Positions 16,131-49,907 of a stretch of DNA of 64,000 bases are shown here, in pieces (the first letter of the stretch is position 1; each line of letters opens with the position of its first letter). Position numbers and translations under genes: made by a program. This DNA is from Girardia tigrina (taxonomy: Eukaryota), in contig MQRK01240841.1 in the NCBI GenBank assembly GCA_001938485.1, forward strand, positions 1 to 64,000, in the 5' to 3' direction. The notes beneath the pieces were generated by a model, which was not told the DNA's origin, made no database searches, and saw only the letters and a list, made by a program, of their open reading frames with translations.

Positions 16131-19070
16131 ATTTAATATATATTATTTATTAAATTATTTCTAATTAATCAGTTGACGTTCATATAATCGATTTAAAACT
16201 GTTTTCGTGTTTTTCAAACGATTTAATATTAATTAAGCATCTATTTATTATTTTTTAATAATTTTATTATTTGGATAAAATTAATTTTTAATAAAGCATT
16301 TTCAATGGAATATTTTTTGTATTTTAAAGTTTTATTTACTCTTATCTGAATAATCTGAACAGGCGGTAAAATTGAGCAGTTGGTCGACATCCTTCAATGT
16401 CATTATTGGTAATTTGAAAGAATTTCCTTTTTCTACAGCTTTCATAGAATATAATCAAAATAAAATTTAATAAATTTTTAATTTTAAACACCTACAAAAT
16501 TATATAATATATTTTCAAGAATTTTATTATCTAAAAATAAATGTTGAAAAATTTTTAATAAATTTTTGTAATTGTTTTTCAAATAGAAAAAAATATAATG
16601 GAAATAAAGATAAAAATTATGCGATTAAAGTTTTATTAATTATTTAGATTATTCTAAAATTTTATGTTTTGTTGTAAAATTAAAAATAATGATAAATAAT
16701 AAAATGGTTATATTTTCTCGTCATACATTTGAAATTGTATCAATTTTAAAATAAAAAGTCTGTAATTTATTGTTCTAAAATCTATTTTTTTAGTGTATAA
16801 ATCGGAATTATCAAAATTTATTTTACTGAATAAATAAATATATTGAAGTTGTTTGCTCAAATATCTTGAAAGACAATCTTATCAACATTTTTAAATAACA
16901 AAACCATCAGGGAACTTTAGTTAGGAAATTCTTTTTTCTTTTACTATATTTATCAGGACAAACAAACCATAAAATATCCATGATGTTGGTTGAACGATAA
17001 ATGGAGCCTCGGTATTTTTTTAGGTGTCTTTCGCTGAATGCTGAATGATTTTTGAATTAAATATTTCATGATATTAGTCACGGACCGAATCTGTATGTTT
17101 AGAATTATTGTTCGTATAACAAGCAAAAACAAGAATTGAAATAATCATGTAATCAATGGCATTTGTGATTTGTAATTTTAGAAAAATCTGTGCATAAAAT
17201 CGGAAAATAAGAAACAGGTCCTTAAGTAAAGCTCATATGAGAAGTGCAGAAGGGTAGGTTTAGATTACGAATTATTAGAACCGGAATTTTAAGATTTAAA
17301 AGTAAGGCATGTGGAGACATGAATTTCGCATTTCAGGTTTCTTAAATTGCTCACAACCGAAAAATAATCTTTAAGCTATATTTTCTGATTCGGAAATAGC
17401 AAATATTACTGGAGGAAATTGGCCTCAAAACATCTAAATGAATTTGTGTTAATGTATATTCTCCATATCATTATTTCCTATTCATATCGTCTGTATCTAA
17501 TAACATGCGTTATGTATTTTTCAATTTTTTATTTCATTTAAAATTTCAATTTATTAATAATTGTAATATATCAAGTCATGTGGGCATTACAATGATAATC
17601 TTATCTTATAAAGATGAATTTTGTGTTTGAAGACGTACAACCAAACTTTCCTTAAACATTTTCATTCCCACAGGAAGTTCAAATAGTTTTCTAAGAGTAT
17701 TAAAAAATCCCCGGAAAAATCTCCGAGTTCACAATTTATTCAACCACATTGCTATTTTTTCAAACTGCCGAAATACTGATTTTTTATAATTTTGGATTCA
17801 GCTGACTTTTAAATACTTTATCACAAATGTAACTTTTTTCTTACCGCAACACTTTTCCTTGAAAGAAATCTGATACGCCAATCTAGCAAATGAATACTTT
17901 GTAAACAAAAATGAATAAATTTATTGAAAATCTTTTGAATAAACAATATAAGGCGATCTGAGCTCTTAAATTTTAGTATTTAAACTATTTCTAGTAATAT
18001 TTTAATGATTATATTCTCGTCTTATGGTTTGATTATATTAAAATAATTAAAAATTATGTTTTAACGTCATAAATTTATTTATATAAAAAGATTATTCCAA
18101 AGAACATGTCAAGAAGTTGAAAACCCTTCGAAACATATTTGAGGTATATTTAAATTCCTGCAGTTATCTGTAAAGCTTTTAGGACCATCTATATGGAAGG
18201 TCCAAGATAAGGCATTTCTCGAGTTTAATTTTGTTTATTCTTTGATTTACACTTTAATCCTTCAGGAGGATCCACTTCCTTAGTTTGCTATTGTAGTTCT
18301 TAAAAAATAAATCTTCCCATTCAGCCAAAAAACCAAAACAGGAATTCTTAAAATTAAAATTTCATCTTTTTTTGACCTTCCTAACCACTTAATATGAACC
18401 TAAAAGAAAACAAATAGTTTCTTCCTAATAGTTTCTTTACAAGCACAGAAGCAAGCTTTCATTCCCCAATACCTTTCTCAATGATCCTTAAGAAGATTGT
18501 ACGGCAATATCCCATTATCTTAATTACAAAATATTGCATTATATTTCCTTATGTGCGTCTCACCTCAATAATCTATGTAGATAGTCCATTGATTAACAAT
18601 CTAAGTAGTGATTATTTTATGTATAAATATTTGTGCTACAGAATAATTTTCTTATAATGTGTCGATTTACTGTACAAAGTTTGTTTAAGTAGTTTTTAAA
18701 AGTTTTTTTCAGACTAACATTGTAAAAAGGTTTACCAACAAATATAGCGCGATATAATTATTTTAGTGTAATATGTCTGTTTGAAACTCATACTCGCCTC
18801 CTAGAACTATTCTAATTAGTTTTCATAGGATAATTTAATTAAATATTTTTTATAGGAAAAAATATAACTTTGATGAAAGGTCTATCTTTGATAAAAAGAT
18901 CAGATTAAATCCCCAAAACCACCAACAATATTTAAACATTAAATTGCGTTTTATTTTTATTTAATTATTTTTTAAGTTATTAATTTGATAATTATACCAT
19001 AATTATGTACAATTTATTTAATTTAAACGTTTTTCTCTTAATAATAGATCTAGTCCTAAAAGACAAAAGG

Positions 19071-19341
19071 ATGAGAGAATGGTCCGCAGTTGCTTATTTA
19101 TCCTGTTACGTTATCATTTTGATTTTAACATGGTTTCTAAATATTTTTCTAACAATCGGTATATGCAGCAGTCGTCAGCTTTTCCGCTGTAAATCCAAAA
19201 AACCGACCCCCCATTTCCAGTCAGCCTCCCTCTCGCGATGTGCACAACTGGCTAATTATTATTTTATTACTTCAATTTGTCTCTCAAATATAATCTCAGT
19301 CTCTCTCAATCCACCGTCATTCATAATGATGAATTGGTTTT
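19071..19341 (+). CDS. Exon encoding TM1-TM2 of a 5-HT2-like orphan class A GPCR
   Basis: MREWSAVAYLSCYVIILILTWFLNIFLTIGICSSRQL...ANYYFITSICLSNIISVSLNPPSFIMMNWF aligns to 5-HT2 TM1/TM2. Donor T|GTAAGT after 19341 (phase 1). A possible acceptor ...AATAG|19048 means the start could lie in an earlier exon. Confidence 0.85.
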
Positions 19342-21788
19342 GTAAGTTTATTTTGGTTTTAATTAATTTACAGTTGCCTAAGTAATTCTTCTATTTTTTA
19401 TTAATAATTGTGGACCAAATTCAATCAAAATAATGCATAATGCATAATCTTCTATACTTAATTTATTACTATTTTTATTATTATTATTAATAATAATATT
19501 AATAATAATAATATTTTAATTTGAGTTTCATTAATTCTAGGAATTTTTCATTATCAAAAATTTATTATTTCGTCATTTATTGTATCAAATAAAGATTATT
19601 TATAATTTTATTTATTTATAATTAATTATTATAATTTATTAATAACATAATCATACCGACAATTCAGATCTGAAATTTTACATTGAAAATGTTTTTTATT
19701 CTTACGAGTCTACAAATAAAAATATTTTTAATACTTTTTTTGTTAAAGAGATGCTGAAAATCCTTGAAACATTTTGCGACATTATTAATGGAAGATTCAT
19801 AATCAATTCGATAAAATAAAATATCTCCGAGTTTAATTTTTCTCTTTTTATGAACAATTAATTCTAAATTGATTGATTAAATCTTTCTTATTTTAGGAAA
19901 TTTATTTGTGGATTAGGATTCAATCATGAGCTTTTATGTAAAAATGTTTATTATATTACAATTTTTTATTAAATTAAATGATTTCCCACATGATATTACT
20001 CGTAAATAAAAATTTTTCAAAAGTTTTTTTTTAATTTTTAAATTTCGTAAAACTGCAACATAAATTTTTTTAGAACCTTTGAACTGAAATGTCTAATAAG
20101 GTTTGACATTGTTGTGAGAATAGGGATACTAAAGTGGATTAAATATAGGGTGAACCGAATTTTTAATCCACTTACGAATATAAATAAAAATAAAATCAAA
20201 ACGTTGAATTAAAAAGATTATATTAGTAATAATGCAGCAGAAGGATAAAACGAAGGATATCATAAAAAAAAAAGAAAATCAGTTATAGGGGATTCAATGA
20301 GTAAAAATGTTACTTTAATGTTGTCCAAAATTGATCATCAACAAAATAAATAATTGTATGGAGTGGTTCACGAATTTTCACGAAGATAAATACAAATCCG
20401 AAACTTTGAAGATGACTTGATTCTTAGAATTCCTCGGTTGAAACTTGGTGAGAGTGGTTTCTAATATTTTGGCTTTAAATTCATCTATTGAATCTTGTAT
20501 TGTTTTTTTATTGACTTTTTTTATTGTTATAATTCTAATTATATTATAATAATAATCTTAATATTATTATTATTATAATAATATTATATATAATTCTGCT
20601 AATATATAATTTTTTATTATCTTCCTAATTTTATCTTCTGTTATTGATTCTTTCTTTTCTCAGCAGTCCTCTCTAATTATTATTTACATAAATAAAAAAA
20701 AAATAAATCCCATTCAAAATACAAAAATGATTTTGTTTATAACACCACACACAAAAATAGATATTCATATGTAGATTTTGTTATAAATAAAAAAATATGC
20801 GGGCACTACAGATAAGATGGAGATTAGCGTAGGGATAAATAGTAAATTAAGGTATAGTATTATTATAGTGACATTATATTATAACAGAGTAGGGTGTAAC
20901 GGAAGGTAAAAACGAAAGTGAATAAAATGAATTACAATATAACACGAAAAAAGTCGAAAAAAAGTATATACAATGAAAATGTTAATTTGGAAAGTGGTAT
21001 ACCATATCAAATAACAGCTCAGTTTTGATAGACTAAAGACTCGGCACATTTAGATTTTGAATAGGATCGAATGAATTTAGTTCGAACTTTCGAGAGTCAA
21101 ATTGTCGTTTCTTCAATATTTTTTTCTTCTTGAATGCTCATCAACTTCGGTTTTGAAGGAATATTTTGTCGAAATAAAGGTCGGTAAAATTATTGGAGAT
21201 CCTTTGAAAGGTTATTTTGAAATTAATAATTAATGTCCTGAATAGAAAGTCGAAAACCAGAAAACGGAAGCTTGGAAATTTGTTTCTAATATTGTATTAG
21301 TTCCAATGGATTTATCGATTTTTATTTTTAAAATTATATATATTTAATCTATACATAAGCGACAGGTCACTAAAAATAACGTTTTTTACAAATAAAATTG
21401 GTATTATTTTGAATCTAAAAGCATCATACTGGATAAATCACAAAGACAAAACATAACAGTCCAAGAAGTAGCGTTTAGATAAATGAATAATTTAAATTAA
21501 GTTCCAAAAAATATATCAAATTACGTGAATCAATTTCAGTAAAATAAAAATTCAAGACCCATTTCAGTTGATCGCTTGAATAATTGGAAAAGATAATAAA
21601 ACATTTTCTAAAAATATAACCTTGTGATTAGAAAGAAGTTTATACGTAATGACATTATTGAATTTTAAAAATTATGAGAAACTAGAATAGGACCCATCAT
21701 GTATGAAATGAAAGCTACATTTTCATATTTGAAAGTTTCTCTTATTTACATATTTTTAAAATTCGAAAATATTTTTAATCTTAATATT

Positions 21789-24438: not shown

Positions 24439-24906
24439 TAATTTAACTTTAATAACTTCGTTTTATGAGTATTTCAGAAATAAGAATTGTTCTTTCCAAT
24501 TTAATATGTTTTAAAATAACTGAGGTCTCAATAAAATTAAGAATAATAATTTCATATCGTTGTTCAATTGGAATTTCAAGACTTTCCTCATAAAATGCCG
24601 ATATAATCAATGGAAAATCTCCCTGGAGAATTATTTTCTTTGTTTAGTAAGAAGGATAAAGCTTGATTATTCTTCAGAATTTTAGATGACAATTTCGCGA
24701 AGTATTTATTTTTTTACTTATACATTTTTTCTTGAAAAATTAATAAATACGACAGTATATAAATTAATAAATAAAGAATTCAAGGAAAAAAATGAATTAA
24801 AACCTTGTAAAGTATCTAACGAAGTGTTGGGATCGAGAAATTTCACAGTCAACACCAGGCCAATTCATTAAGGGGGTACTGAGTCCGATGGAAAATTTCT
24901 CGGGAT

Positions 24907-25191
24907 CTGAAATAAAATAAAATGATTATTAAAGAAATATAATATTAATTAATTAAAACTAACCTTAATTGATTTTGCACTTTGATCGGAAATAAAAATA
25001 TAATTATTAAGATGACTTAATTGAAAAAAACTTACTTAATTGATCTGGAATCTGAAATTATAAAAACAATGATTATTTATTTAGTTATAAAAAAAACTTA
25101 CTTGATCGATCTGATCGTTGATCCTTGTTGATCTGAAATGAAAAATATGATTATGTTTTTTTTATTGTGCACTTTGATTGTTTGCACTTAC
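24907..25191 (-). other. Array of four short spliceosomal-type introns separating micro-exons, apparently non-coding
   Basis: Minus-strand GTAAG/GTTAG...TAATYAT...TTTCAG units of 59, 50, 49 and 57 bp. One acceptor reads CCG instead of CAG. Exons are 31, 16 and 23 nt. Confidence 0.5.
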
Positions 25192-26477
25192 TTGATTGTT
25201 TGGACTTTGTTTTCGATAGGAATCTGCAGGGGCTCATAGTGCCTGCCGTGATTATTGACGATTTGACAGTGAATAAGAAAAAGATCTTGAAAGATAATTG
25301 AAGACAGCTGATCGGTTGATAGTTACCGGTGGGTGCTCATAGTGCCTGCTGAGTATATTGATGATCTGGTAGTCGAAAAAAATGTTCTGTATAGAACATC
25401 TTAAATGTCACCGTCCATGAGAAAGTCTAATAATCAAACCTCCATCAACCTCAACCTTTTTTTGTTGTCATTGTTAAACCTTTAATATCAATGTTGGATA
25501 ATTGATGAACATTTATGTTTTTAAGTTGATTTATATTCTTTTAAAATATTTAAAGATTATTCTGTGGAAATATAAGAAATCATCAGAATATAAAACAACA
25601 TGATATCTATAGAGATTTGTTCTTCTAGACATCAGATGGATGAATATTTATTAAAAAAAAGTTTACGAGGAACCCGGAAGGTATTTGATTTTGTTCACTG
25701 GTAAATCATTGGGCCAGATGAACCTAACCTGTTAGAAAATTCAAAAATGTCCGGGTCTTATAAATAAAATTACTTTCAATTTTGAGACATCTCGATATGA
25801 TTATTAAATCTAAAGTCTTATGATCAAATGATTATAAAATAAATGAATTAAATATTTTGAAACCTTCTTAATAGCGCACAATTAAAGTGTATCCATTATT
25901 TTTATCTTCTGTTGGACTTTTATTATCTTTTTTATGTATTATTTTTGAATTTTCGTTCTAATCTTGTTTATAAATTTTTTTTGTAATGGGGGTAATGCTA
26001 CTAACATTAAAATGGCTTCTCATCACGGATTCAAGAGCACATACGATTTGGCAATGGAAACAATATTAGTAGCAAAACTCGGGTGCAATTGATTCAGTAT
26101 CCTAAAAATACAATAGAAAATAAAATTCAGAAATAAAATGTGTTAGAAATTCGAAGCACAAATACATTATTAAATTGTATAAATAAAAATACTAAAATGA
26201 AAATGTAATAGTAATTTTTCGTGAAAATCTTAAATGTATTTTTTTAAAATATAAAACAGAAATTATTAAATGAAATTTTACAAAACTTAAGATCATAAAA
26301 TTAAAATTTTGGGTAAATTAGAATATAAATTATACAAATGAAATTCGTAAAAAGTTATTTTCACAACAATAAGAATATTAGTTAGAATTGTAAAATATAA
26401 AAATGAGAATTTTAAAAGGTAACGAAAATTTCTAATTTAAAGCCTATATTGTTAATTGCACGTATAGAAATTTAGAA

Positions 26478-42112: not shown

Positions 42113-42358
42113 TACATTAATATATTGACAATATTACTTTAGTAAATAAATTGGTAAATAATCTTCACATAAGTTACCAATTTGATCTTCTGAGTAAGCT
42201 GAAAATAACAGAAATAAGAAAAATAATTTACAAAAATAGACATTTTATACACAAACGTTATTTAAACCATGATGTACTGTTAATATTATTATTATTATTA
42301 TTATGAATTTATAAAATATTCATTATTATAATTTATAAATAATTTCTTTTAAATTTAG

Positions 42359-43512
42359 ATATCAAGAACACAAATAATGCCAAACTATTTTGTCTATTTC
42401 ATTCAAGTATGAATACATTTCTCTGTAATCTAGCATTTCTTCATGTTTTATGTTCGAGTCTCGATACATTTTTTCGTTTACGAAATCCAAGACTTTATCT
42501 TGACAGTCAAAGACCCCAAACTACATTCCTCAAAGTTTCCGCACCTTGGATTGTCACAACAATCCAAGCTGCCTGCCAGTTGACAATTAACAATCAAAAG
42601 ACTGTAACAATCGAAAACTCACTTTGCTTAATTGACGATGGAAACTTCTTGATACTGAGAAGTGTGATATCTTATGCAGTTCCATTAGTCGTTTGTGTGA
42701 TTTTAATAATATTACAGATCATTTATTTAAGATTTCTTACATCAGTCAGTATTGCTAATTTAGAATTTCTTTTACGATCTTATTCTTTGAATAAAATTAA
42801 CGAAAAATGTGAGTCGGATGAAACCTGTCAACTAAATGCATTCGACAATAGTCAGTCTAATAATGAGATAAATGAAAACGAAGAAATGATTTCCGAAACA
42901 AACGTTATGGATAGTTCAATTTCCAGAGATCCTATTAACCCTATTCTACAATCGCCAAAATTAGTATCAGCAAGTACATCAAGAATATTGAAGCATAATT
43001 GCCCAAAGCACGGTCTTATTTCTTTTCCAGTAGTTATTCAAGAGTCTCCACAAATCATTGATTTGACTTCAACATCCAATCTTCTGACAATGAGTAATGA
43101 TAGAACAAAAAGCACTCTTCATAAATCAGTATCTTTTGAAATGCCAGACATAACAAATTTAGCTAAATCTGCTGAAACAATTGCTGAAATGAGAAACAAA
43201 GAATCCTCTAGATATTCTTCTAATAAAAAGTCATGGTTGAAAATGTATAAAACTGAGCAATTATCAATAGCGATGAATATGATAATGTGTATTATATCAA
43301 TTGGTGTATGGTCTCCTCTCATATTATCTACATTGGCTTACAAATTGTGTAAAGAATCTCCTTGTACCATTCATATCTTGGTTGACCGGATTAATGATTT
43401 CGAATGGTGGGCATATGCTGGGGGATTAGCATATCCATGTATTTTTCTGTTTATAGATTCCACAATACGAAAATCACTTAAATCATATATTTGTGCTCAT
43501 TTTAGAAAATAA
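42359..43512 (+). CDS. Terminal exon (TM3-TM7 and C-tail) of the 5-HT2-like orphan GPCR; spliced product 474 aa if started at 19071
   Basis: Acceptor TTTAG|AT, phase 1, in frame with the 19341 donor (T+AT = Tyr). TM3 Cys, SLDTFFRLRNP, ECL2/TM5 SLCLIDDGNFLILRSVISYAVPLVV, long ICL3, VWSP in TM6, LAYPCIF in TM7, helix 8. Intact 1154-nt exon. Confidence 0.9.
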
Positions 43513-46000: not shown

Positions 46001-47059
46001 GCTATTTTTTCGAAAACAATTATCAGGTTTTATTCAGTCGCTGAACCAGTAAACTATCAATAAGCTGGTGCTATTTAATCTCTTTATTTTTGCAATGGCA
46101 CTGCATCAACAAATATTGGTGAACTAATCCAAGACAGAATTGTTGCTTCAAATTCTTCTATAAAATTGTTTTATTTGTTATGATAAGCAAAAGCAAAAGT
46201 TGCATTTTCTGTAAATGATTTTGTAGCCTCAGTATTTTTATACACTTAAAAAAATTTCAAAGTTCAAATTTAAAAACGAATGAATTTTAAAAAACAAATG
46301 TGCCGAAAGATAGAAATCAAAATAGAATTAGCAAGGAAATCAATTTTTGATAAACCTATTTGTAAATCATTAAATTGCTGCTGTCGAAACCATATTTTAT
46401 CATGATCCAAATTTTCTAATTGGTAATTTGTTTCCAAATTTACTCTTATATTTAAATGAAAGCCATTTTGGCTTAGCAACTTTTAATAGTTCACGAAATG
46501 ATTTAGTTTCGAGCAACTCTGGAAGCTAACCCTGAATCGAAAATATTCCATATGAAAATTGCGACAACTAACCCGACAAAATGTCGCGTGATCCGGTTGG
46601 AGGCGTCCCAGAAAAAAACAATGAAGAAATCAGCTCTTTGAGGTTCTCTATGTGACACAAATCAGCGGACTTCGACTTGTCCAGAATACTTAAATACTGA
46701 TTTTTGGTCGATAACCATTTCAAAATTTGTTAAACTTGAAACTTTAGAGTCGTTATTTTGTACGGACGGATTGTCGCCGGTAAAAAGATTCAAATTGCAG
46801 ATAAGTTTGCATTTGAAATTCTTGTATCGAGCTTTGTAAGATGGATTGACTATTTTTTTAACGGAATGCTACAAGAACCGTTTTTTTGCATTGAAAGACA
46901 GATTAAAATTCGAATTAAATTATTTCATCCATTTTGATTATTGAAAAGGTGGAAAAATGACATAAAATGCAAGTTACCCGCAAGAATTCTCCAACTCTGC
47001 ATATTAAATTTTTTTCTATTGATTAAAATCAATATATATATATATATATATTAAATATA

Positions 47060-48423
47060 CAGTGTCGCTCAAATTAATCCGTCAGTACATTTTTTTCATA
47101 TTATTTAAATTTGTACAAAATTTACCAAGCCAACCATTCTTGAAATTTTACATATAACTAACTTAAAGATTGAGTCAATTTATCAATAAAAATATCTCAT
47201 AAAAAATAAAAATTGAAATATTTATGTAAGATTTTCAAAAAAAATTGGTTGCTCAATTTAATCCATCATTACGTCATATCAATAAAATTTTATCATATCT
47301 GTAAAAGTTTATTAAATTATAATTACATTATTGTTTAAGAAACCAAGATAATAAAATCCTAATAAAATTTTATTAGAAAAAGACAGACCGAATAACGGTT
47401 ATTAATATTTTATGGGTGCTCTTTTTGCATCAATACAGCTTGAATTCGTCGAGGCATACCATCGATGAGACCATGACAAGCAGCCTTAATGTCCGGATCA
47501 TTGCTCCATATATCTTTTATTATATTTATGAGTTCTTCTTTGGTATTTATATGTACAATGTGAACTTTTCTTTTGACAAAAGCCCATAAATTCTCTATTG
47601 GAGAGAGATCTGGGCTATATGGAGGCCATTTTAAGACAGCAATGTTCTGGTTTTTTAAAAATGAAGTTCCAGACTTGGACTTATGACACGGCGCATTATC
47701 CTGCTGAAAAATATCAATCCCAAATGAATGGCGTTCATTCATTAGGGGTAACAGGTTCTTTTTAAGGATATTTATGTACTTTTCTCAATTCATGGTTCTT
47801 TCAACTATTTCTAAGGCTCCTGTTCCATCTTTTGAAAAGCAGCCCCAGACCATAATTCGTTTAAGAAATGGTCGATGTTGCCTTGTGTGTTCATTTTGAA
47901 TTAGTTGACCTTTTCTTTTTCTTATATATTGTGCTCGTGGAGGATTCATCGGAAAAAGAACCTAAAATTTAATGAAAAAAAATATTATGTAATATAACCA
48001 TTATTTATTCTACCTTCTTCCAAAGAAAAACATCCCACTTTTCGTACAATTTACACCATTTATATCGTACATCCTTTTGGCGCTTAGACAGTGAAGGTGG
48101 TATTAGAGGTCGGTATGAAGATAAACCACTTCTTATTAATGATCGTTTGATGGTATTAAGATTCACATTCATGGTATTCAAACCAACAGCAGTTTGTATT
48201 GTCCTTGTGGTTGCTTTAGGATTTATCAAAGCTTGAAAAATTTTTTGTAAATCTTGCACAAATATTTCAATTTTTATTTTTTATGAGATATTTTTATTGA
48301 TAAATTGACTCAATCTTTAAGTTAGTTACATGTAAAATTTCAAGAATGGTTGGTTTGGTAAATTTTGTACTAATTTAAATAATATGAAAAAAATGTACTG
48401 ACGGATTAATTTGAGCGACACTG
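47060..48423 (-). mobile_element. Tc1 (DD34E) transposon, IR/DR type, 5' internally deleted, with a 52-bp intron
   Basis: TA-flanked CAGTGTCGCTC TIRs with ~164 bp matching. FQQDNAPCH...WPPYSPDLSPIENLW (34-aa spacer). Intron 48013-47962. Confidence 0.9.
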
Positions 48424-49907
48424 TATACTATAATTGTAGCAGGCTTCTACACAGTCAACTATGTAAACAGTTATCAGTCATAGTCTGGAGATTTTTATTA
48501 TCAATATATATGTAATAGTTGTAATACTTCATATATTTTGAAAAAACTTTCATGATCTCTGTAAGAGAATCCAGAAACATAATAGTAAAAAAGAGTAGTA
48601 ATAAAGAAAAACATTTTGAAGATGTCATAAATACTGAAAACTTCAAAGTTATGTGTACTTGATTTAATAATTATTTTGATAGAGTGGTATTAAGAGCATT
48701 TATATAAGATTGCCTAGTGCACTCTTTAACTAATTTTTCTAGTAATTAATATTTTCAATACCAAAACTTTTTATTTCTTGTCTTAAAAAATATTCGTATT
48801 TTTGAATTTTATTAAAATATTCGTTCACAGTTGATAAAATGCGAATTTTGATGGTTGAATGAGTATTTTCCGTTTAGTTTCACTGCAAATTTTTTCTAAT
48901 TCACTTTAGAAATATATAAAATTTTATTTGAATAAAAAAATAAATTACTCCATTTACTTTAAAAAAAATTGAAAGATATGCAAAAACAAATAAATTGGAT
49001 ATATTTTTTTATAAATTTAGAAAAAAACTTTTACATGAAAGCCTTTGCTGGAATAGAAATTTTCTTATAAAACAAAACTTATATAATAATTATTGTTTAA
49101 CATAATAATTATTTCTTTACTGAAAAAAATTACTATCTGAATTCAATTAACCGATTCGTGGCCATCCAGTATTTTATTTTCATGTTTCATCATTTCCTAA
49201 GATTCACATGTGTCCTGATCCTCTATGAGGTTAGCGTAGACAAAATAGATTGTTCTTTTTTACCCAAATTTTTCTCCACTAACGTTTAAATGATTTTGTC
49301 TGATTTTCTAAATGTTACTGTTTGGTCGCTTGACCCATTTCTCCTTTCTATCAGTTCTTTCATAATATCCCGTATGAATTTTACCTTTAAAAAAGCCGCT
49401 ATTAGTTTCTTTTCACATCATCCCTCAGACGTAGCTTCATATTTTATAATTGCATCCTTAATCAAGGATTACTAATCTTGTATGGTGTTACAAGTAAGAT
49501 TTTCCTCTCTTCTGAATATCCAATTGTCGTCCCTCTCCTGTTGACGGTCACAATGAATGCCTCTACTTCTATCTCGGATCCTTCAAATATCTCTGATGTT
49601 CGGAATCACGTTGTTATGTGTCGCCATATTAAGAATACTAATATGATTTTAACGCGTTAATTGTCCTCAAGACAAATATTATCAAAACATAAGTAATTTT
49701 GCATTATACGATTGATTAAGAATCTTTATTCAATTATCTACACAAATTGGAACCTGGAAAATCTCTAAAAAATATGATAGGTTAAAATTATAATAAACAT
49801 TAATTATTTTAAAATATCAATTCGGTTTATTTATATAAAAATTTAAGATAAAATTTATCAAATTATTTAAAATTTTGAAATGATAATAAATTAAATAAAT
49901 TTAAATA

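Follow-up and report, generated by a model that had tools for sequence, protein, structure and literature searches.

The Drosophila elements HeT-A and TART give rise to multiply spliced non-coding antisense RNAs (PMC2615633, PMC3235214; also PMC1636488), and the reason for such splicing in retroelements is described as enigmatic by the HeT-A study (PMC2615633). In maize, spliced long non-coding RNAs (lncRNAs) contained within LTRs are described, in the available part of the source, as enriched in young copies (bioRxiv 10.64898/2026.05.08.723830). The giant Burro (GYPSM1) elements of planarians, which are of the Ty3/gypsy type, have the order env-PR-dUTPase-RT-RH-IN after gag (PMC6431247).

The locus described here lies in a 64,000-nucleotide stretch of Girardia tigrina DNA (contig MQRK01240841.1, positions 1 to 64,000 of the forward strand), which we refer to as the window. 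A first-pass annotation, made from the sequence alone, had noticed on the minus strand a tandem array of four intron-like units separated by micro-exons, and had proposed that it was a multiply spliced non-coding RNA or 5'UTR, possibly carried by a transposon. The literature searched, with Repbase outside that search, yielded no description of antisense mini-introns arrayed in tandem within an LTR, planarian LTRs included.

A solo LTR with an intron-like array at its U3 end

The segment that carries the array forms the 5' (U3) terminus of a solo LTR, which is damaged and belongs to a family with hundreds of copies ('U3' here denotes the LTR's first 370 nt). The suspicion that it was transposon-borne is thus borne out, and the genome search for copies that the annotation had proposed recovered hundreds of them and an LTR family as the parent element; three queries of this dispersed repeat returned 927, 773, and 425 first-look candidates, with 40 scored for each. 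When compared by blastn with a natural full copy (L009), the window LTR aligns in two blocks of 89% and 92% identity, is missing approximately 240 nt between its internal repeats, and ends approximately 125 nt before the far end. The features of the window copy are as follows:

24821..24824, plus strand: left target-site duplication GAAG (4 bp, read from the sequence; duplications in the family are also 4 bp)
24825..25727, plus strand: solo LTR remnant in element sense, U3 end first (blastn against L009)
24825..24906, minus strand: predicted last antisense exon within the LTR (82 nt, reaching the LTR end)
24907..24963, minus strand: intron-like unit 4 (57 nt; homologous to the single unit of the sister LTR family)
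24964..24986, minus strand: predicted micro-exon 3 (23 nt)
24987..25035, minus strand: intron-like unit 3 (49 nt; acceptor ends CCG)
25036..25051, minus strand: predicted micro-exon 2 (16 nt in the window copy; 22-23 nt in the family)
25052..25101, minus strand: intron-like unit 2 (50 nt)
25102..25132, minus strand: predicted micro-exon 1 (31 nt in 25/25 fully parsed copies)
25133..25191, minus strand: intron-like unit 1 (59 nt in the window copy; 42-47 nt in 45/46 parsed copies)
25215..25382, no strand assigned: two units of an LTR-internal tandem repeat of approximately 103 nt (unit number differs among copies)
25906..25946, minus strand: LTR far end with a second GAAG, inverted and displaced by approximately 180 nt (read by eye against the LTR ends; too short for blastn)

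The positions and lengths of the four units, the micro-exons of 31, 16, and 23 nt, the 103-nt spacing of the duplicated repeat, and the TGTTGG end at 24825 are all as first annotated, as is the 52-nt intron of a Tc1-like element elsewhere in the window (47056-48427, with 187-nt inverted repeats; the intron lies at 48013 on the minus strand). The internal tandem repeat is shared with a sister LTR family at 72%.

Full copies of the family mostly have LTRs of 1.3-1.5 kb, and most copies having both ends show TG...CA termini with a 7-bp inverted repeat. Target duplications of 4 bp are exact in 19/29 cases, carry one mismatch in 8/29, and are lacking in 2/29, these two being L057 (a 5' LTR) and L033 (which has internal sequence on one side); the tally omits duplicate rows and L020, whose duplication is exact. 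Two LTRs flanking one internal region were not seen on any one contig of this fragmented assembly; each type of LTR junction was seen on its own, and L084 has both of them flanking a single gapped LTR.

The four units combine GT-AG ends, a branch-like word, and a host-typical length, which by sequence are features of spliceosomal (U2) minimal introns. Their lengths match those of inferred host introns: among 22 kinesin introns deduced from profile scores, not from RNA, 16 measure 40-59 nt, with signals weaker than those in the units. A strict pattern of donor, branch word, and acceptor, composed after the units had been seen, finds these four units only on both strands of the 64 kb. With a loose GT-AG pattern, the window has seven minus-strand and four plus-strand matches, three of which fall in the array while the other eight are scattered over both strands; at least three such matches were obtained in 0/5000 dinucleotide shuffles of the segment. 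Compared with one another, the unit interiors score hardly above shuffled sequence (0.52-0.64 versus 0.46-0.58), and the units agree in end words and size despite this divergence. Extra units in L033 and L066 adjoin assembly gaps and were left uncounted.

Several traits of the array proved to be peculiar to the window copy. Its 16-nt exon, 59-nt intron, and CCG acceptor were read correctly but are not family traits, the family values being 22-23 nt, 42-47 nt, and AG, and we therefore attribute all three to decay; the A-to-C change in the unit 3 acceptor is private to this copy (1/56 aligned copies). The branch-like word TAATYAT, which had been reported for every unit and is indeed present in each unit of the window copy, is absent from intron 1 of one subfamily, and the statement that the exons carry TAA fails for the 31-nt exon, which has none. 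The window copy is decayed and probably lacks a role of its own.

This copy sits between two exon-like plus-strand ORFs (18984-19385 and 42343-43512), possibly belonging to a rhodopsin-family receptor with a repeat-rich intron of approximately 23 kb between them. The two ORFs may form one GPCR gene; the second alone has a Pfam match, a weak one to 7tm_1 (E 0.0012, under the cut-off). Its location is what recommends the array as an antisense regulator of the GPCR, and the end words common to the units, which probably arose by duplication, are what recommend it as a decayed tandem repeat. We regard these two readings, together with kinship to micro-exon genes, as extremely improbable: the array is family-wide in a recently mobile LTR, it maintains no frame, and the window copy is damaged. 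Copy number and LTR anatomy argue against all three, which we consider largely refuted. The notion of a dedicated GPCR regulator is unlikely, the window copy being just one of many insertions, and a decayed one.

Schistosome micro-exon genes are protein-coding, with symmetric exons whose lengths are multiples of three. The exons here differ in both respects, measuring 31, 22-23, and 23 nt and varying in frame between subfamilies: micro-exon 2 is 23 nt long in one subfamily and 22 nt in the other, so that no reading frame is kept. The array is not a micro-exon gene, and the earlier view of its RNA as non-coding is upheld.

Orientation and lineage of the element

The primer site of the family is complementary to the 3' end of host tRNA-Pro (a tRNA-Pro gene is present in L243) and starts 8-10 nt beyond the LTR end opposite the intron-bearing end. 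Matches at six junctions number 18/18 in L169, 17 in L084 and L057, 14 in L156, and 9 in L233 and L241, where the score of 9 reflects a one-base offset and the exact primer word is present in both. The internal region contains capsid-like and zinc-knuckle remnants reading toward the intron-bearing LTR end; a Retrotrans_gag match (E 0.002) falls short of the cut-off, knuckle motifs are visible downstream of the primer site, and the sister family has a zf-CCHC match with an E value of 1.7e-10. In L084, both junctions are found in one orientation. From the direction of gag and the exact primer site, it follows that element sense is the window plus strand and that position 24825 marks the 5' terminus of U3, so the four minus-strand units are antisense to the element's own RNA. 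The opposite arrangement, in which the introns would be in sense orientation and precede a primer-like word, was rejected since the strand opposite the units carries both gag and the exact primer site, and for the same reason the array is not the 5'UTR that had been suggested.

No intron array was found on either strand within 1500 nt or less before the primer site in other tRNA-Pro LTR families; among 18 tRNA-Pro loci scanned, the array occurs only in L233 and L241, the two copies of the present family (family A) with enough upstream sequence. The other tRNA-Pro-primed families (L229-L247) share a GC-rich block and carry, 40-60 nt in from the LTR end, a further primer-like word; one tRNA-Pro gene pair is located in L243.

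At the 3' LTR junctions examined, a polypurine tract before the LTR is absent, and an inverted tRNA-Pro primer-like word is found instead (for example in L083, L084:510-540, and L081:1982-2010, and at other 3' LTR junctions). This word adjoins the intron-bearing LTR end in 14/14 distinct junctions picked up by pattern. Its commonest form, identical in 8 of the 14, lies 6 nt from the LTR and agrees with the primer site for tRNA-Pro in 10 of its first 11 bases. The geometry of the word could suit tRNA priming of the second DNA strand, or the word could be a relic; a search of the literature turned up no case of a polypurine tract supplanted by a tRNA site.

At L081:5697-5740, L113:4862-5150, and L167:4952, the element is joined to related sequence that runs the opposite way; nesting with deletion, assembly error, and template switching are alternative explanations for these junctions. 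These opposite-sense chimeras, along with the recurrence of the inverted word, could be taken to mean that the family is copied both ways, the intron strand then being another genomic RNA, with priming at the inverted word and with introns that mark it for export or decay. We find this very improbable, as the inverted word is imperfect whereas the true primer site is exact, an intron-less LTR was not found genome-wide (at junction 4), and the chimeric junctions look one-off (1/25 for L081) in a fragmented assembly.

With respect to coding content, eight internal stretches contain no env or pol, bar two weak matches (a 13-residue integrase tail, E 0.16, and a chance-level env, E 0.44), and 0/178 candidates passed in a protein search with gag. 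The env-pol of L081 was considered as a sign of the parent element and rejected, such a junction being found in 1/25 cases and the env-pol belonging to another element. A sister gag family (76-82% identity) runs on into a Monjiviricetes-type fusion protein, and the interior of family A matches it at 26-61%. Gag is followed by env in two gag relatives of the same genome, L256 and L248, while a distant gag relative (L382:3371-7606) has env-PR-dUTPase-RT-RH-IN in one 1412-aa frame. This domain order is that described for Burro, and the family is on these grounds filed as a putative non-autonomous relative of Burro-type Ty3/gypsy elements, not as an autonomous Burro member. It differs from Burro in being without env and pol and far smaller (Burro exceeds 20 kb), and introns in LTRs go unmentioned in the available part of the Burro report (PMC6431247). 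Copies of the gag-env family (L248, L256, L258, L260, and L262-L266) begin at tandem repeats of approximately 60 nt; no LTR or primer site was seen upstream of them, and in L248 and L249 no protease or RT was seen directly downstream of env.

The sister LTR family (L346-L375 and L388:2794-4560) has LTRs of approximately 2 kb and 1528 candidates. Its primer site is at the equivalent LTR end and is presumably of tRNA-Lys type. A sense ORF of approximately 240 aa without a Pfam match lies within the LTR, and there is a possible 58-nt sense intron. On the antisense side this family has a single unit, homologous to unit 4, with GT in 14/16 and AG in 15/16 loci (16 of 30 loci reach that end); the donor is weak and the register is ambiguous by one base. 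The comparison suggests growth from one ancestral unit to four, in an unrooted comparison from which the direction of change can only be inferred.

Conservation of the units and competing readings

For the conservation analysis, 127 hits were reduced to 85 distinct sequences, 67 full-length gap-free ones, and finally 56 colinear copies, the 11 left out of the last set being truncated or internally deleted. The colinear copies fall into two subfamilies of 39 and 17, which differ by 6% within and 16% between. GT and AG are present in 53-56 of the 56 copies at seven of the eight junctions, and the eighth column is an alignment slip.

The annotation had held that the splice signals were better conserved than the spacers, and had proposed examining GT/AG conservation across copies. 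The claim stands modestly, and between subfamilies only. Subfamily differences affect 0/16 GT/AG sites and 3/48 end sites, versus 40/160 interior sites (p=0.013 and 0.002, respectively, from 25/56 copies with segments aligned separately); when substitutions alone are counted, the values are 0/16 and 3/48 versus 25/145 (p=0.058 and 0.044), and the significant tests all derive from one subfamily split and motif-anchored alignments. An unanchored column test, one alignment slip included, is not significant (p=0.12-0.32). Rare private substitutions strike GT/AG as often as interiors (0.019 versus 0.013 per cell), indicating that no selection is seen on inserted copies. An intron-less DNA copy of junction 4, the only junction searched, was found nowhere in the genome (0 against 136), a result that fits antisense introns and non-introns alike and so does not discriminate between them.

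Other parts of the array are also conserved. The micro-exons differ at 12/77 sites, not significantly more often than the splice ends (p=0.10), and within unit 4 the interior has hardly changed between subfamilies (1/45 sites). Conservation of exons and of the unit 4 interior at the level of the splice ends would be expected were the whole U3 end constrained promoter DNA, and LTR enhancers reside in U3. The main rival to splicing views the array as promoter or enhancer DNA of U3 in which short factor-binding words alternate with AT-rich spacers, its splice-like look being incidental or only occasionally put to use. CAAAG-TCA-type words, which we take to resemble HNF4 and ONECUT sites, occur in the upstream exon and in the micro-exons, and Burro1 has been described as intestine-enriched (PMC8532177). 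However, the four diverged spacers keep a near-consensus donor and acceptor and a length of 42-57 nt on one strand only, which is beyond what binding sites need, and we consider the enhancer explanation somewhat unlikely. Splicing and enhancer function are compatible: the exons could serve as binding words while the spacers act as introns.

We consider real splicing of the four units, as predicted from their signals, to be rather probable. The fuller reading that we prefer, in which they would be spliced from a non-coding antisense LTR transcript with a cis-supporting role, has an even chance at best. Introns on the packaged sense strand of a retroelement tend to vanish at reverse transcription, whereas antisense introns are copied intact; the antisense position of the units may explain how they persist through reverse transcription. 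The antisense RNA would start mid-LTR, cross the array, and leave via the U3 end, entering host DNA from a solo or 5' LTR and the element itself from a 3' LTR. One ancestral unit would have been multiplied to four, with donors and acceptors near consensus. Splicing adjacent to the promoter may stabilise the antisense RNA and support LTR promoter activity in cis; enhancer RNA splicing is described as contributing to enhancer activity (PMC7035876). Mimicry of host mRNA, which the annotation had raised, would be a hypothetical role.

It is also conceivable, if improbable, that the introns are real and that their spliced antisense RNA acts against the element, as a piRNA precursor or antisense regulator, instead of aiding its promoter. 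HeT-A antisense RNAs are linked to a small-RNA pathway (PMC2615633), antisense RNAs from retroviral 3' LTRs can favour latency (PMC8622228), and the geometry at a 3' LTR is such that the RNA would run into the element; against this, 3.7 kb of minus strand beside the LTR in L113 is without a convincing ORF. An extension of the preferred, cis-supporting reading, which we put forward as speculation and think quite unlikely in its entirety, is that the lineage evolved an antisense intron cassette that reverse transcription cannot remove and amplified it from one unit to four. The spliced divergent RNA would then mark the LTR as gene-like and either boost transcription or blunt PIWI silencing, and the second strand may be tRNA-primed.

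Comparison with described systems

The family offers a comparative case, with four units set against one in the sister LTRs, hundreds of solo copies, and short fixed junctions. Should the units be spliced, every solo LTR also supplies the genome with four pairs of strong splice sites; otherwise, the array would be an ordinary LTR enhancer structure.

Among LTR systems, the maize lncRNAs resemble the predicted planarian RNA in having introns within the LTR and a short middle exon and in being non-coding, and differ from it in being transcribed from the sense strand, with a mean intron of 1303 bp and typically three exons; the pipeline of that study, as given in the available part, retained same-direction reads only (bioRxiv 10.64898/2026.05.08.723830). 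Antisense transcripts from the 3' LTR of deltaretroviruses are LTR-driven and spliced, as is proposed here, but are often protein-coding, and the portion of that account at hand makes no mention of a tandem mini-intron array (PMC8622228). The ta-TRIM of taeniid cestodes, also an LTR element of flatworms, is likewise non-autonomous, has many solo LTRs, and gives rise to spliced lncRNAs that start in the LTR. In contrast to the planarian family, it is described, in the available part of the source, with LTRs of 198 bp, a polypurine tract, splicing on the sense strand, and no intron array (PMC4558846).

In layout the array resembles HeT-A and TART: as in the available descriptions of those elements, several introns, here predicted from sequence, occur on the antisense strand only, in a terminal non-coding region of a retroelement. 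Splice-site conservation across subfamilies, which is described for them, is modest in our case and significant in anchored tests only. HeT-A and TART are non-LTR telomeric elements whose alternative splicing has been shown in RNA, whereas the planarian family is a dispersed LTR family with predicted splicing, and its tandem minimal introns, separated by exons of 22-31 nt in an LTR U3, differ from what is described for them. The array may function as an analogue of the HeT-A and TART antisense RNAs; the element is not a member of those families.
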